Source: Gracilinanus agilis (lineage: Eukaryota). From it: DNA of 64,000 nt. The position numbers and the translations under genes were made by a program. Below the pieces are notes generated by a model. It worked only from the letters and a program-made list of their open reading frames with translations. It searched no databases and was not told where the DNA came from. Each line of letters opens with the position of its first letter. Position 1 is the stretch's first letter. The DNA lies in NCBI RefSeq assembly GCF_016433145.1, contig NC_058131.1:278001703-278065702 (forward strand), read 5' to 3'. This document shows positions 18,940 to 64,000 of the stretch, piece by piece.

Positions 18940-27222
<8,283 letters not shown>

Positions 27223-58565: not shown

Positions 58566-61359
58566 ATGGCATCATTAATTGCCAAAGACTCCTACCTGCA
58601 GAATCTGGCCAAGAAAATCTGTTCTCAGCAGACTGTGGAGCCACAGAAACGAAAATGGGGTAATTTATACAATTCTTGGAATTAAAAAAAAATTATAGTG
58701 CAGTTCTCCTTTTCCATCATCAGGCACCAGCCTCATCTCTAGATCATCTTGGCTGCTATCTTAGGTTAAGAGGCATAGTGGTCTGTATGAAAGAACACTG
58801 GAGCTACAAAAGATCTAGATTTTAGGGCCAGGTCTATCATTTACTTAGTCAAACCGTTTTCTGCTTCTGAACCTCAGTGTATGTCTTGTCTTGTCTTCTT
58901 TCACAGGCCTAATGTGAAGGTCAAATGAGAAAATGCATATTAAATCTATTTGCAAATCATCTAAGGTTTTATTATGTATGTGTGGCAAAGCAGATAAGGG
59001 AATTAATTCATCTGAGAGTTCTCTATACCTGTGAAATTTTAAGTTCAAAAAAGGATGGTAAGGGAAGCTAGATGACTCATTGGATTGAGAGCCAGACCTA
59101 GAGATGGGAGGTCCTGGGTTCAAATTTGACCTCAGACACTTCCTAGCTGTGTGTGATCCTGGACAAGTCATTAAACCCCAATTGCCTATCCCTTACTGCT
59201 CTTCTGCCTTGGAACCAATACACAGAATTGATTCTAAGATGAAAGGTAAGTGTGTAAATGGAGTTTTGTGCCCCAGAACTACATTCCCCAGAATTCCTTT
59301 ACTTTTCCCAGAATCCCTTGAATTATGTTCCCTACTTTACATCCTCATGTTTTGTAAATAAATTTCTGTGAACTCAGCCCTTGCTCTCTCTTCTTCCAGA
59401 GCTCTCCTCTTTGCTCTTTCCAGTGCTCCAGTGCTCCTGGCCTGGGATCCTCCTCTTTACTAAGGCTGTCACTTTCTTTTACTTCAAGTTATTATTAATA
59501 AATTCTTATAAAAATATAATACTTGAAGTATTTAAATATTGATTTTTAAGCTTACATAAGAGTTTTAAAAAAAAGGATGTTGGTGGTAGATTATTATTGT
59601 TGTTACTTATCCACTAAGGCACAGTTATCCACCCAGTATATTCTTTTGTCATCTGAGGTCTTTTGTTTTTGGTTATCCAACAAGATCCGACAAATTAGGA
59701 AGTTATAAGAGTAATCAATCAACAGGTATTATTTATTCGGCATTTATTCTCTACCCAACTCTTTGCCCCTTAACAAGCATTTATATTATTGTGCAAAGCT
59801 GGGCATATGATTAAAAACAAAAAGGAAAACAGTCCCTGTTTTAAAGAGCTTACATTCTAGTGGGGGAGGAGAGAAACAACGCAAAAATGAGATTTAAAGA
59901 GAGAGGCAGGGAAAGAAAGTCCCTCTTAGGGTCCTTGTGCTGAAACCTGAAAAGTTAAGAAGGTAATGGAGGATGTCCAACCTGGGACCCTTCTCAAAAT
60001 GAAGGAAGACAATGATGTTCAGAAGGCTGGGATAGAGAAGGTAGATTCCATGGTAAAATGGCAGCTGAGGCATTGTATCGAACTGCTATCAGACAATAGA
60101 TCTGAAGTCAGAAAGACTTACATTCCTAAGTTCAAATTTGACCTCAGACACTTATTAGGTGTGTGATCACAAACAAGTCACTTAAGCCTGTTTGTCTCAG
60201 TTTTATCATCTATAAAGTAAGCTGGAGAAGGAATAGCAAAACCACTCCATTACCTTTGCTAAGAAAGCCCCAGATAGGGTCATGAAGAGGTGGACAAGGC
60301 TAAAAACAACCAAACAACAACTAAAATTGTGTAGTGTAAATAATATGTAGTCTAGAAATTCAAAGAAGGGGGAAAATAAGTGTGAAGGTTGGAGTTGAGA
60401 TTTGTGTACCAATTTCTTCACTCTTTTCATCTTTCCCAAAGAAGTTTGAATTGAAAGAAGAAAGATCATCTAGTTGTACCTGTAAGGATGGGTTTTTGTG
60501 CAGAGGAGAGGCAACCAAAGGGAGAAGGAGACAGTTGCTGACAGTTGCTAACAGTCGAGACCAGAGGATGCTGGGGATTTTCTCCCAGGAGGAGGGGGAA
60601 GAGAGGTCTTCAGGCTGAGGGCTGGGAGGAGTGAGGAAGAAACAACCCAGTTCTGATTCAGTCCAGTGGGCTTCCTGAGGATCTTTCTCTTGGAAATTGA
60701 AACCCTGATTCCCTGATCACAGCCATTTCATCACATCTCATCCTTCAAGACCACAACCATCAAGTCAGCTAAGATTTTGGATTCCATTGGGAGCAGTCTC
60801 TTAATCTCCCTCACCCATTACCCATCCTTGCTGAGAGACCCTTTTCAGTCAAAGCTTACAATTATAGGAAAGGATAGAAATAGAAGGGGAAGGGGGGCGT
60901 AGAAGCTTAGGAGTTGGAACCACTAGGGTTCCTACCCAAGTGATGGACTTTCATAGGAATAGCCAAGAGGGCACCCCCAAAATCCCTCTGTCCTTCACCC
61001 CTTTCCTCAATCCCTGATTTGTGAATAATAAAAGCCATTTAACAGTAAGATAGTGTTACAGTGTGCCTGAAAGACAGTAAGGGAGAGGGGAACCACAGCT
61101 TGGCCTAGCAGACTCCATCTTTGAGCCAGACCACCTGCTGTGAAAATAACCAACCTCGTGGAAGGTTTGAGTGAACCCCTTCCTCATTCAGGATCGGATT
61201 GGGGTACCACATACCTCCTCTTGTAGGGAAGCCTTGCCCCCAACTCTTGTGGAGTGGCATGACCATCCAAGTCACCCAGTTTTGGGGTGACACCCCCTTA
61301 AAGTCTTCCAGTGTATATTCAGCCCCAGGGGAGTGCTGAAGGAGAGAGTCACCACACAG

Positions 61360-61399
<40 letters not shown>

Positions 61400-63186
61400 C
61401 TTTCTATCAATATCCATTACTGGCCCCCTTTTATAGTTACAGTTTTGGCAGAGCCAGCTAGGAGACGCTTAGCAAAGGATTTCATAGATTCTACAAGATC
61501 TTCTCTATCTCTTCTTAGGTATATTAGGTTTTGATGACTGTTTAATTCTGGATCTTCATAATGCTGTGGCCAAGATATTAAGTTTGTGTTCCTATGGGTC
61601 TCCTCAATAAATTGTGCTTACTCTGCTGGTATAAATAATTCAGATAGAAGAATTTCAGTATCTGAAAATGTGGGATCAAAAAGCTTTAATGCTCTCTTAA
61701 ATTCTTTTACGGCCTTGACGGGATTAAAAAAAAGGCAGGCATTCATTTTTTTAGGGTGTCAAGATCTGCAGCAGTGAATGGCTTATGTCTTTTTATATGG
61801 AAGACTCCAGAATCTGGCTGCAAAATCACATGATCAATAATTGGTAATATTGGTACTGCTGGTGCTGTTGCCCCTTCCTCTATTGTCTTTGCTGTGTCTA
61901 TGTGCCTCAGCTGTTTGTATTGCTATTTCTATTTTGTCCCCTGCTGTGACCCCTTTTTCCCCTTTCAGTTGAGCATTCTCTTCCAGTAACTTTGCTATTT
62001 CCTTTCTTAATGTCATTATCAATACAGTGCTATCATCCTTGTGTCCTAGCAACTTGTGCACTAAATTCTTTAAGGACCAATAGAATTGGAGGAATGAGAT
62101 GATTACTGCAATTGTGGTTGGTATGAAAGCAAAAACCCTACCTATTTCTAGCTTCAACCATTGGCAGGAATCGTATATGTCTATGATTCCCATTATATAA
62201 CCTGGGATCACTACCATCCACAAATCATAAATCATAGTCCACAAGTGGTATAATAATGCAAGGATTCCCATCATGGTAAAAATTATTTTCCCCATTGATG
62301 CATCCATTCTACCAGTTTGAATATAAAATTTCTATGGTACTGTGCCTTTACATTTTGATAGGAGAAAAATGGCTGCCATCAGAGGCTTTTGATTTTTTTT
62401 TTTAATTTTTTTTAACCACAGGAGTTATGTAGGCACTTTGCCTATGCTGGCTCTGCCAGGGGTGAAGGACAGGGATTTTGGGGGTGCCCTCTTCGCTATT
62501 CCTATGGGGTCCATCATGATGAAATGGCTGTGCCCAGGGAATCAGGGTTTCAATTTCCAAGAGAAAGATCCTCAGGAAGCCCACTGGACTGAATCAGAAC
62601 TGGGTTGTCTCCTCCTCACTCCTCCCAGCCCTCAGCCTGAAGACCTCTCTTCCCCCTCCTCCTGGGAGAAAATCCCCAGCATCTTCTGCTGGTCTCGACT
62701 GTTAGCAACTGTCAGCAACTGTCTCCTTCTCCCTTTGGTTCCCTCTCCTCTGCACAAAAACCCATCCTTACATACCTCAAAGAGGAGAAATACTCTGCCC
62801 AGGGTCTTCAATAATGAAATGGTAATTCAGGCCTGAGTCCTCTAACTCTTAAGCCCAGAGCCCTTACTACTATATTGTCCTTCCTCTACTACTATTCCCC
62901 AATGGCCCAAAGGTATTAGGTTTTCTGCTGTGTCAGGGACTAGAATGACCTTTCTCCCTTTTCTTTGTTTTAGCTCCCAAATCTGGTCATCTCGAAACCA
63001 CTGGACCCCCGAAGAAGAAGAAGAAGAAGAAGAAGGAGCAGAAAAATAAATCTCAGAAGCAGGATGAAAAAGCCAAGGGGATCCAGAATAAGCCCACTGA
63101 CAGCAGACAATCCAAAACTCCTGGGGCCAAAATACCTGCAGTCACAGAGATGAAGGCACTTTCCAGCACCACTGAAGATTCCACAG
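58566..63186 (+). CDS. SURF6: Surfeit locus protein 6 (nucleolar, RRP14-like), first two coding exons; gene continues past the window end
   Basis: 58566-58659 MASLIAKDSYLQNLAKKICSQQTVEPQKRKW(G|GT) and 62974-63186 (A)PKSGHLETTGPPKKKKKKKKEQKNKSQ...; the phase-1 junction is consistent and the N-terminus matches SURF6. Confidence 0.93.
59060..59575 (+). mobile_element. SINE1_Mdo-like SINE interrupted by a solo LTR (59251-59556)
   Basis: The SINE tail gaaaggtaag|...|agttttaaaaaa is split by a TG...CA element flanked by TAAG/TAAG. Confidence 0.75.
60481..61464 (+). mobile_element. ERV LTR (60481-61441) followed by a tRNA-Arg-like primer binding site (61446-61464)
   Basis: tgtaagg...agttaca, AATAAA near 61027, internal (CT)n; tggcagagccagctaggag resembles TGGCGAGCCAGCCAGGAG, the complement of the tRNA-Arg(ACG) 3' end. 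Confidence 0.75.
61465..62307 (-). pseudogene. Decayed ERV1/gamma-like gag fragment (157 aa ORF plus frameshifted capsid N-terminal domain)
   Basis: Across frameshifts the minus strand reads PILPIIDHVILQPDSGVFHIKRHKPFTAADLDTLK..ECLPFFNPVKAVKEFKRALKLFDPTFSDTEILLSELFIPAE*AQF, which resembles Gag p30 capsid (MLV YWPFSSSDLYNWK...HQPTWDDCQQLLGTLL). Confidence 0.7.
62441..62772 (-). mobile_element. Internally deleted second copy of the same LTR plus PBS, inverted
   Basis: 62517-62772 is the reverse complement of 60481-60733 (about 95% by eye); 62459-62516 matches 60941-61001; PBS tggcagagccagcatagg at 62458-62441. Confidence 0.85.
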
Positions 63187-63869
63187 GTGAGAGCTCCTAA
63201 TGTGATGGTAGGCAAGGAAGACTTAAACAGAAGCGAAAACATTTTCCTGTCCTCATATCAAGCATGTACCATATATTAGAGGCATGACAGAATATTCTAC
63301 TGGGAGGTAGAAGAGTCAGGTTCTAGTTCCTCAGCAGACACATATCAAGACCCTTTTAAGCTTAATGGAGAACCTGCTAAAGTTTCTTCTCCCTTGTAAT
63401 AGTCTTTAAGAACCTGATATCCTACCATGGTAAAGATTGGAATTTAGTAGATGTAGAGCTAAAAGAGACCTTAAAGGCCTTACAGTCCAGCTCCCAAAGA
63501 TAAGACAGCTGAGGATTTAGAGAAGGGAAGTAATCCAGATAAGGAGTAAGTATTAGTGGTGAGATTTGAACCTAGGGCCTCTGACTCCAGAATCACTATT
63601 CTTTTTGTTTCAGCTTTCTGCTATATCAAGCATCCACAGTGGCATTGCAGGAGGATTTTAGGGTCTAGCTCTTAGTCTAAAATTGAAAGCATGTCTTCAC
63701 TAAGAACACTAAGGGGCAGCTGGATGAAAGTGAATAGAGCCAGGCCTAGTGACAGGAGGTCTTGGGTTTAAATCTGGCCATAGACACTTTTTAGCTGTGT
63801 TACCCTGGGCAAGTCACTTAACCTCAGTTGCCTAGCTCTTATCATTCTTCTGCCTTGGAAGGTTTAAAA

Positions 63870-64000
63870 AAGAACATCCCCACCATTCTGGAGGGCAGTT
63901 TGGAACTATGCCCAAAAGGCTTTAAAAGAATGCCTACCCTTTGATCCAGCCATACCACTGCTGGGTTTGTACACCAAAGAGATAATAGGGAAAAATGCTT
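63870..64000 (+). mobile_element. L1 ORF2 fragment
   Basis: ctggagggcagtttggaactatgcccaaaagg...tttgatccagccataccactgctggg is typical L1 ORF2 3' sequence. Confidence 0.75.

Follow-up and report, generated by a model that had tools for sequence, protein, structure and literature searches.

Proviruses are defined by LTRs in direct orientation, and LTR-finding programs seek direct repeats, so that elements whose LTRs are inverted and whose outer ends are both U3 would, as a class, be fragmented and missed. TIR/foldback DNA transposons and MITEs carry long terminal inverted repeats within a duplicated target. For retroviruses, Pulsinelli and Temin are said to have described in 1991 deleted spleen necrosis virus vector proviruses with a break at the primer-binding-site (PBS) border, reportedly ascribed to mis-transfer of plus-strand strong-stop DNA; by the same account, these products kept direct LTRs and lost downstream sequence. 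For aberrant HIV-1 and ASLV proviruses, the consulted portion of PMC5041404 describes a viral 3′ end that can be extended on either viral DNA strand, appending inverted viral sequence, and a second end that is host-made and often truncated, with long duplications or deletions. Two mutually inverted LTRs are reported for guppy PrERV-1 in the consulted text of PMC5210030, and opposite copies sharing one target site, with matching outer repeats, are described for double-insertion dimers of transposable elements in the consulted part of bioRxiv 10.1101/158386.

The unit described here lies in intron 1 of Gracilinanus agilis SURF6. It resembles opossum class I (ERV1) ERVs, whose Gag-like proteins include XP_007499152.1 and XP_056674145.1 of Monodelphis domestica, in its hydrophobic Gag N-terminus and p30-type capsid (34–44% identity), TG...CA LTR, tRNA PBS and 4-base repeat, and differs from them in having inverted LTRs, two outward U3 ends, two PBSs and no match to C-terminal Gag. 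The likeness to TIR elements claimed in the original prediction is one of shape, with terminal inverted repeats lying within a target duplication; it goes no further, as retroviral LTRs form the arms and gag the core, and the three frames scanned gave no Pfam match. No transposase is present. Unlike the spleen necrosis virus vector products, as they are reportedly described, the unit continues in antisense, has two U3 ends and is fixed in the germ line. Unlike one-ended HIV-1/ASLV integrants, as portrayed in the consulted portion of PMC5041404, it has two precise ends and a 4-base repeat. The guppy element shares the mutually inverted LTRs, but it is described as a full ERV with a flipped 5′ LTR and so lacks two outward U3 ends, and the consulted text gives neither a second PBS nor a mechanism (PMC5210030). 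Intact double-insertion dimers keep a target repeat at the junction, according to the consulted part of the preprint; the unit has none, and one may have been lost to a later deletion. No ERV combining two U3 ends with a single target repeat was found in the literature searched, which was mostly open-access, with little older virology and main texts only.

Architecture of the unit and its target repeat

The unit reads TACC-[whole LTR, PBS]><[5′ half of gag, leader, PBS, deleted LTR]-TACC. It occurs once in the window, the whole 64-kb stretch of DNA that was analysed, and its parts are as follows.

60477–60480, + strand: left TACC, left copy of the 4-base direct repeat, likely a target-site duplication
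60481–61441, + strand: left LTR, complete (961 bases, TGTAA...TTACA), its U3 end facing out and its orientation sense to SURF6; without fixed borders between U3, R and U5
61446–61464, + strand: left PBS, tRNA-Arg(ACG)-like, 17/18 with one inserted base
61464–61465, no strand: central joint between the final PBS base and the end of antisense gag, placed to within a few bases
61465–62295, − strand: 5′ half of gag, class I (gamma-like), running from its ATG through the capsid N-terminal domain, with stops, in three pieces and two frames
62296–62445, − strand: leader, 150 bases, between PBS and gag ATG
62446–62458, − strand: right PBS, sharing 13 identical bases with the left PBS, with drift beyond them
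62458–62516, − strand: right LTR inner block, matching 60941–61002, abutting the PBS
62517–62772, − strand: right LTR outer block, matching 60481–60733, U3 end outward
62773–62776, + strand: right TACC, right copy of the 4-base direct repeat

The LTRs are mutually inverted, and a U3 end faces outward on both sides of the unit. TGTAAGGATGGG directly follows the left TACC, from 60481 on the + strand; the same LTR end is read on the − strand from 62772 and is followed by TACC at 62773–62776, and both termini start at the same precise TG. When flanks were compared for k = 1–11, only k = 4 gave a match, making the direct repeat exactly 4 bases long. The probability of a 4-mer flank match by chance is 0.53% from 4-mer frequencies, and 351 of 60946 positions (0.58%) have one at the same spacing. 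Four bases is the length given for gammaretroviruses/MLV in the consulted parts of PMC5210030 and PMC12789967. A separate target repeat was not found at the inner end of either half, and neither TACC nor GGTA occurs around the central joint (61455–61475). The coordinates and the flank test thus bear out the original prediction of same-type LTR ends inverted inside a single 4-base repeat, and two further points that it had raised were settled in its favor: LTR polarity holds, with the left PBS after the far LTR end and the right PBS, leader and gag ATG in order, and a repeat belonging to each half, which would have spoken for independent insertions, is absent from the inner ends. The architecture, inverted, with two U3 ends and one 4-base repeat, is confirmed.

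This is not the layout of a canonical provirus, which has a direct LTR pair with one U3 and one U5 outer end and one PBS rather than two. No purine run of 11 or more bases that could serve as a polypurine tract adjoins either LTR start from within the unit, and there is no pol sequence, nor room for pol or env.

The polarity of the left LTR was read from the PBS downstream of it. The arms (60481–60733 and 62772–62517) are 96.5% identical over 256 columns (E = 7e-119), close to the approximately 255 bp and 95% first estimated, and a second block (60941–61002 and 62516–62458) is 90% identical over 62. Overall, the arms differ at 9 of 312 aligned bases (2.9%) and by three small indels. The right LTR has undergone two deletions, one of 207 bases between its outer and inner blocks and one of 443 bases that joins the inner block to the PBS, where it reaches the 5′ start and shows 1 base of microhomology. 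A hairpin as the cause of the 207-base deletion was rejected, since the region's folding was no more stable than that of shuffled sequence (z = 0.85, 79/100), and splicing was rejected as the source of either deletion, since the removed pieces lack GT-AG ends.

The PBSs were compared with the complement of mouse tRNA-Arg(ACG) as printed in PMC7757669, a reference from which the opossum's own tRNA may differ. A tRNA-Arg-like PBS had been predicted for each half. The left one stands, as the best match in the window (score 14); the right one does not stand by itself, as its score of 10 is no better than those of three unrelated places in the window, and it is tied to the left PBS by the 13 bases they share. 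In end-to-end alignments the left and right copies score 14 and 8, respectively, the 3′ part of the left copy being nearer to the mouse tRNA. Both have the same extra A at position 5, plus a T where the mouse tRNA gives C. No tRNA genes were found at positions 1–59000 of the window.

The gag half and the central joint

In tblastn comparisons, gag in the window matches two relatives, P0001 (E = 1.6e-39) and P0003 (E = 1.4e-16), and its middle piece (61850–61713) has an E value of 4e-13. P0003 passes the Pfam Gag_p30 cut-off (31.9 bits; cut-off, 27.4), while P0001 falls just under it (25.8 bits) and matches MLV capsid structures (E = 1.6e-7). The window's own gag pieces have no Pfam or PDB match, and it is through these relatives that Gag on the − strand is confirmed and assigned a p30-type capsid. 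The features of a class I ERV are present: a TG...CA LTR followed by a tRNA PBS, and the 4-base repeat TACC on both sides.

Homology of gag to P0001 stops at 61465, the base next to the PBS. Pro, which comes next in 3 of 3 relatives examined, is absent at the joint, and no match to C-terminal Gag was found in the unit. The left half terminates exactly at the PBS 3′ end and antisense gag runs from the next base, with the proviso that the joint may lie as many as about 6 bases within the PBS should gag have resembled it at that point.

Searches for a second copy of the family were negative. The gag N-terminal frame gave 108 pattern matches in metagenome contigs and a search based on P0001 gave 4 in viral contigs, none confirmed in either case; the 28-base LTR start had no match in metagenome contigs, a word-index protein search with the 165-residue frame yielded 0 of 378 candidates, and Rfam gave no match on 60400–62900. 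A word-based comparison listed 7 sequencing runs from 2 studies, one with 0.63 of the words, which may be the assembly source, and six with less than 0.1, with no RNA run among those listed; none of these runs enters the evidence here.

Origin of the unit

Strong-stop DNA ends at the 18-base PBS copy, and the left half consists of U3-R-U5-PBS only, the extent of plus-strand strong-stop DNA. The joints lie at the last PBS base on the left and the first on the right, and both are free DNA ends at plus-strand transfer, which points to an error at that transfer itself. We view the unit as an aberrant provirus of a new variant, in which the newly seen feature is that both internal joints fall on PBS borders. 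A rough post hoc estimate, computed after seeing the breaks and allowing four landmarks for each, puts the chance of both falling on landmarks at 8e-5 to 4e-4.

The explanation that we favor, with some reserve, is that plus-strand transfer failed and yielded a cDNA carrying a U3 end at each side, whose integration in a single concerted step left the 4-base repeat. In its favor count the same precise TG at both termini, the single 4-base repeat, the two breaks at PBS borders and the closer fit of the left PBS 3′ part to the tRNA. Strong-stop DNA would have failed to pair with the minus-strand PBS and would have become linked to viral plus-sense sequence within gag; it may have primed on RNA or on another cDNA, or an elongating plus strand may have jumped to its free 3′ end. 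Copy-back through the leader, PBS and LTR template could then produce linear DNA ending in U3 on both sides, and integrase may have taken these two ends as a pair. One molecule folding back or two co-packaged molecules would give the same product; studies cited in the consulted part of PMC12789967 found second transfer to be always intramolecular, which counts against the two-molecule route. A single integration by two U3 ends was part of the original prediction and, with polarity holding, is the reading favored here. The prediction overlooked an alternative with ordinary U3/U5 integration, and the later trimming by deletion that it proposed fails to account for a left half that stops at the last PBS base and a right half broken at the first. 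The extra A common to both PBS copies speaks against a failed plus-strand transfer: a left PBS copied straight from tRNA should lack it, and heteroduplex repair or a primer variant must be invoked.

The overlooked alternative, which we consider possible though unlikely, begins with a normal − strand provirus and its TACC repeat. A later template switch at the left terminus, through the TGTAA inverted repeat, would have copied the 5′ LTR and PBS in inverted form and returned into gag; pol, env and the 3′ LTR would have been lost, and the right LTR would have shed two pieces as the inverted repeat decayed. The single repeat would then come from ordinary U3/U5 integration, the five bases of terminal microhomology are present at the LTR ends (TGTAAG versus TGTAAC), and the non-tRNA bases common to both PBS copies fit later copying at the DNA level. 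A guppy ERV with an inverted 5′ LTR offers a parallel, for which recombination is suggested but left unclear in the consulted text of PMC5210030. Against this, the return switch must hit the final PBS base and a separate, independent deletion must run to the first one, neither of which is special for host polymerases. The first switch must also occur within 5 bases of the terminus, leaving no trace of the old U5 end, and within a stretch of 7 bases the PBS copies show one indel and two base differences, compared with 2.9% in the arms.

An origin from two complete elements, whether by double insertion, as chance 4-mer neighbors or as two cDNAs co-integrated by their U3 ends, with the halves later fused by a large deletion, is distinctly improbable. 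MLV-like viruses are not known to have a fixed target sequence, the central joint holds neither TACC nor GGTA, neither half has a separate repeat, a chance 4-mer match is expected in only about 0.5% of cases, and the position of the joint at the PBS end is left to chance. Double insertion at one site is known for P elements, jockey and hobo, junction deletions are common, and a long inverted dimer would be prone to deletion; the P-element mechanism, however, depends on target-site preference (bioRxiv 10.1101/158386, consulted part). The 2.9% arm divergence and the common PBS variants would be allowed as family features. Inverted repeats are a known artefact class, but an assembly or fold-back read artefact is very improbable here, as mismatches at 9 of 312 bases, together with two large deletions and three small indels, set the arms apart, which is unlike copies of one molecule, the flanks are colinear with SURF6 exons 1 and 2 in order (102/102 residues), and a 4-base direct repeat at both termini is not expected from an artefact.

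If the unit did originate in reverse transcription, through a failed plus-strand transfer, the locus would document, in a living germ line, an aberrant transfer and a concerted integration by two like ends, would supply a searchable signature (inverted LTRs, one short target repeat and a half that stops at the final PBS base) and would show how long inverted repeats can arise in introns in one step. If later rearrangement is the true account, it is an ordinary decayed ERV of unusual shape. It is one copy, and no function is claimed for it. The unit is probably the rare relic of an error in replication, rather than a new mobile element, and is predicted to be a dead end: it lacks pol, an outward U5 end and a polypurine tract ahead of the right LTR, and has neither a transposase nor a way to retrotranspose. 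A broader proposal is that the locus is germ-line proof of integrase recurrently taking U3/U3 cDNA from derailed transfers, and that the opossum ERV family with the tRNA-misfit PBS gave rise to further units of this inverted-LTR kind, which would have supplied host introns with dsRNA stems of 250 bp to 1 kb; we consider this speculative and improbable.

Host intron and predicted RNA stem

The unit is flanked by two exons of SURF6.

58566–58659, + strand: SURF6 coding exon 1, E = 1.3e-6 to human SURF6 in 8fkp
62974–63186, + strand: SURF6 exon 2, 100% to the Gracilinanus agilis protein named SURF6

A PDB search with exon 2 alone gave no match. Spliced in frame, the two exons encode 102 of 102 residues of the named SURF6 protein, and exon 2 starts 198 bases past the last base of the right TACC. 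An insertion in SURF6 roughly 200 bp before an exon acceptor, as first proposed from the DNA, is confirmed on both counts. The accompanying suggestion of a dsRNA stem of about 250 bp agrees with the predicted fold, in which the 250-bp stem has an energy of −520 kcal/mol versus a control mean of −87; such a stem would end about 200 bases before the acceptor.

Structure of the unit and its outer ends

The original prediction of an ERV at 60477–62776 with two same-type LTR ends in inverted orientation inside one 4-bp target-site duplication was borne out: the same TG-type end faces outward on both sides, a single direct TACC repeat encloses the unit, and the inverted arms are 96.5% identical over 256 columns (60481–60733 versus 62772–62517).

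Features of the unit (coordinates, strand, description)
60477–60480, +, left TACC, followed by TGTAAGGATGGG on the + strand
60481–61441, +, left LTR, TGTAA...TTACA
61446–61464, +, left PBS, starting four bases past the LTR; 17 of 18 bases complementary to mouse tRNA-Arg(ACG), one base inserted
150 bases after the right PBS, up to the ATG at 62295, −, leader
62458–62446, −, right PBS, a 13-base copy of the left PBS
62773–62776, +, right TACC, adjoining the − strand LTR end that starts at 62772, the same end as TGTAAGGATGGG

When lengths of 1 to 11 were compared, the flanks matched as a direct repeat at length 4 only. A 4-base match is expected by chance in 0.53% of cases from 4-mer frequencies, and occurs at the unit's spacing at 351 of 60946 window positions. 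An inner block (60941–61002 versus 62516–62458) aligns at 90% over 62 columns, and together the two blocks differ at 9 of 312 bases, a corrected distance of 0.029 ± 0.009, giving an age of roughly 5–10 million years for an assumed neutral rate of 1.5–3e-9 per site per year and arms assumed identical at the start. No further copies of the LTR were found within the 64-kb window.

The tRNA reference, as printed in PMC7757669, is from mouse and not from the opossum host. The left PBS is the window's best match to it; the right PBS, scored alone, does no better than three unrelated places in the window, and is called from where it lies and from being identical to the left copy. Both copies carry the same extra A and a T, neither present in the mouse tRNA. 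An LTR followed by a PBS on the left, and a PBS, leader and gag in that order on the right, show that both outer ends are U3 ends.

The left LTR contains CTTACA at 60855–60860, which matches the start of the LTR in inverted sense over 6 bases; a run at 60882–60897 that resembles a polypurine tract; and a second GTTACA at 61055–61060. It may have been assembled from older LTR pieces, a composite common to both arms. Where the right LTR has lost 207 bases, two 5-base inverted repeats now abut to form a perfect 10-base palindrome (62512–62521), and the junction shows no direct microhomology.

Gag content and the breaks at the PBS borders

The gag of the unit is broken by stops into three pieces in two frames, none with a Pfam or PDB match of its own. 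A protein search returned 9 proteins at E <= 0.001 among 1.84 billion representatives. The best relative, the Monodelphis protein P0001, has a zinc knuckle, matches MLV capsid structures, and has a Gag_p30 match just below cut-off; in a second relative, P0003, that match is above it. By tblastn, P0001 residues 4–279 map to 62283–61465 (E 1.6e-39) and residues 151–196, in a different frame, to 61850–61713 (E 4e-13), while residues beyond 279 have no match in 59900–64000. In gags of this family (61837–62331, −; P0001, P0002, P0004, P0006, P0007), the N-terminus consists of a long hydrophobic region and a coiled-coil-like stretch, where Pfam sees no matrix domain. The Monodelphis gene model P0005 (XP_056677042.1), which bears the name tyrosine phosphatase epsilon-like, opens with ~80 residues of this ERV's capsid, also has a stretch matching repeats at six window places, and is likely chimeric.

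Gag homology stops at 61465, where the N-terminal domain of the capsid ends, and the Pro that comes next in all three relatives examined (P0001, P0003, P0008) is absent. The adjoining base is the last of the left PBS, so the left half is exactly U3-R-U5-PBS, with the central joint placed to within a few bases. This is the extent of plus-strand strong-stop DNA. On the right, the 443-base deletion of the LTR stops at the first PBS base, with one base of microhomology; there the minus strand reaches the end of its template, ahead of second transfer. The two breaks are the two 3′ ends that are free at plus-strand transfer. As a rough figure, computed post hoc with a tolerance of 1–3 bases and four landmarks each, both would coincide with landmarks of this kind by chance with a probability of 8e-5 to 4e-4.

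Candidate origins

The positions of the breaks sharpen the original interpretation, a single integration through two U3 ends, which is supported in part, and we lean towards failed plus-strand transfer as the origin. From the observed architecture and break positions we infer each step of the following route. Strong-stop DNA would have been joined to plus-sense gag sequence, by priming on RNA or a second cDNA or by an elongating plus strand jumping onto the free end of that DNA. Synthesis across the leader, the PBS and an LTR template would then yield a linear molecule with a U3 end on either side, which integrase would insert in one step, leaving a 4-base repeat. The unit resembles a provirus that, reportedly (Pulsinelli and Temin, 1991), arose from a strong-stop transfer error. 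Four bases is the duplication length given for gammaretroviruses and MLV in PMC5210030 and PMC12789967.

The main objection to failed transfer is the shared extra A and T, since a left PBS copied purely from the tRNA should lack them; speculatively, a PBS fitting its tRNA poorly may have caused the failure, and heteroduplex repair may have left a mosaic. A second is work, cited in PMC12789967, in which second transfer was always intramolecular. A normal provirus rearranged later, by template switching in the host at the five-base inverted repeat that terminates the LTR, accounts for the target repeat and the shared PBS bases, but it leaves both PBS-border breaks to chance, and we consider it distinctly less probable. 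Two complete elements, from double insertion (a route in bioRxiv 10.1101/158386), chance or co-integration, followed by deletion, are unlikely, as no target repeat lies at the junction or around either half. Routes that we have not thought of hold a small share of the probability. Mis-assembly is very unlikely, given arms that are diverged and differently deleted and exons that are colinear.

The unit is neither a canonical provirus nor a TIR transposon, and it is not one of the one-ended aberrant integrants described in PMC5041404. PMC5210030 records a guppy ERV whose 5′ LTR is inverted, with no mechanism in the portion available. An ERV with two U3 ends in one target repeat was not found in literature covering few subscription journals or older virology papers and no supplements, which is weak evidence of novelty. 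The unit is a real, unusual structure with a testable signature, but a single dead copy of still hypothetical origin. With no pol, no polypurine tract ahead of the right LTR and no U5 end facing outward, it is predicted from sequence to be immobile and would not move again.

Placement in SURF6 and predicted RNA structure

Exon 1 matches human SURF6 (E 1.3e-6), and exon 2 matches a Gracilinanus agilis protein named SURF6 at 100% identity over 70 residues and that of Monodelphis at 87%. The exons (58566–58659 and 62974–63186) have GT-AG ends, splice without a stop, and give 102/102 residues of the Gracilinanus agilis protein; the unit thus lies within SURF6 intron 1 of an opossum, with colinear flanks. 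In SURF6 pre-mRNA, pairing between the outer arms is predicted at -520 kcal/mol (20 random pairs: mean -87, best -131 kcal/mol). The predicted stem ends ~200 bases before the acceptor and so would leave the pyrimidine tract free.

On the SURF6 sense strand, AATAAA occurs inside the unit at 61027 and 61606; the former, in the sense-oriented LTR, might serve either as a TATA-like box or as a poly(A) signal, the latter risking a premature end of the host transcript. An assembly gap (319 N, 24515–24833) is far from the unit. Repeats near the locus, which we take to be SINE-like, lie at 59088–59214, 60100–60209, 63545–63581 and 63736–63860. One inverted pair (59108–59144 and 63545–63581, 76%) encloses both the unit and SURF6 exon 2.
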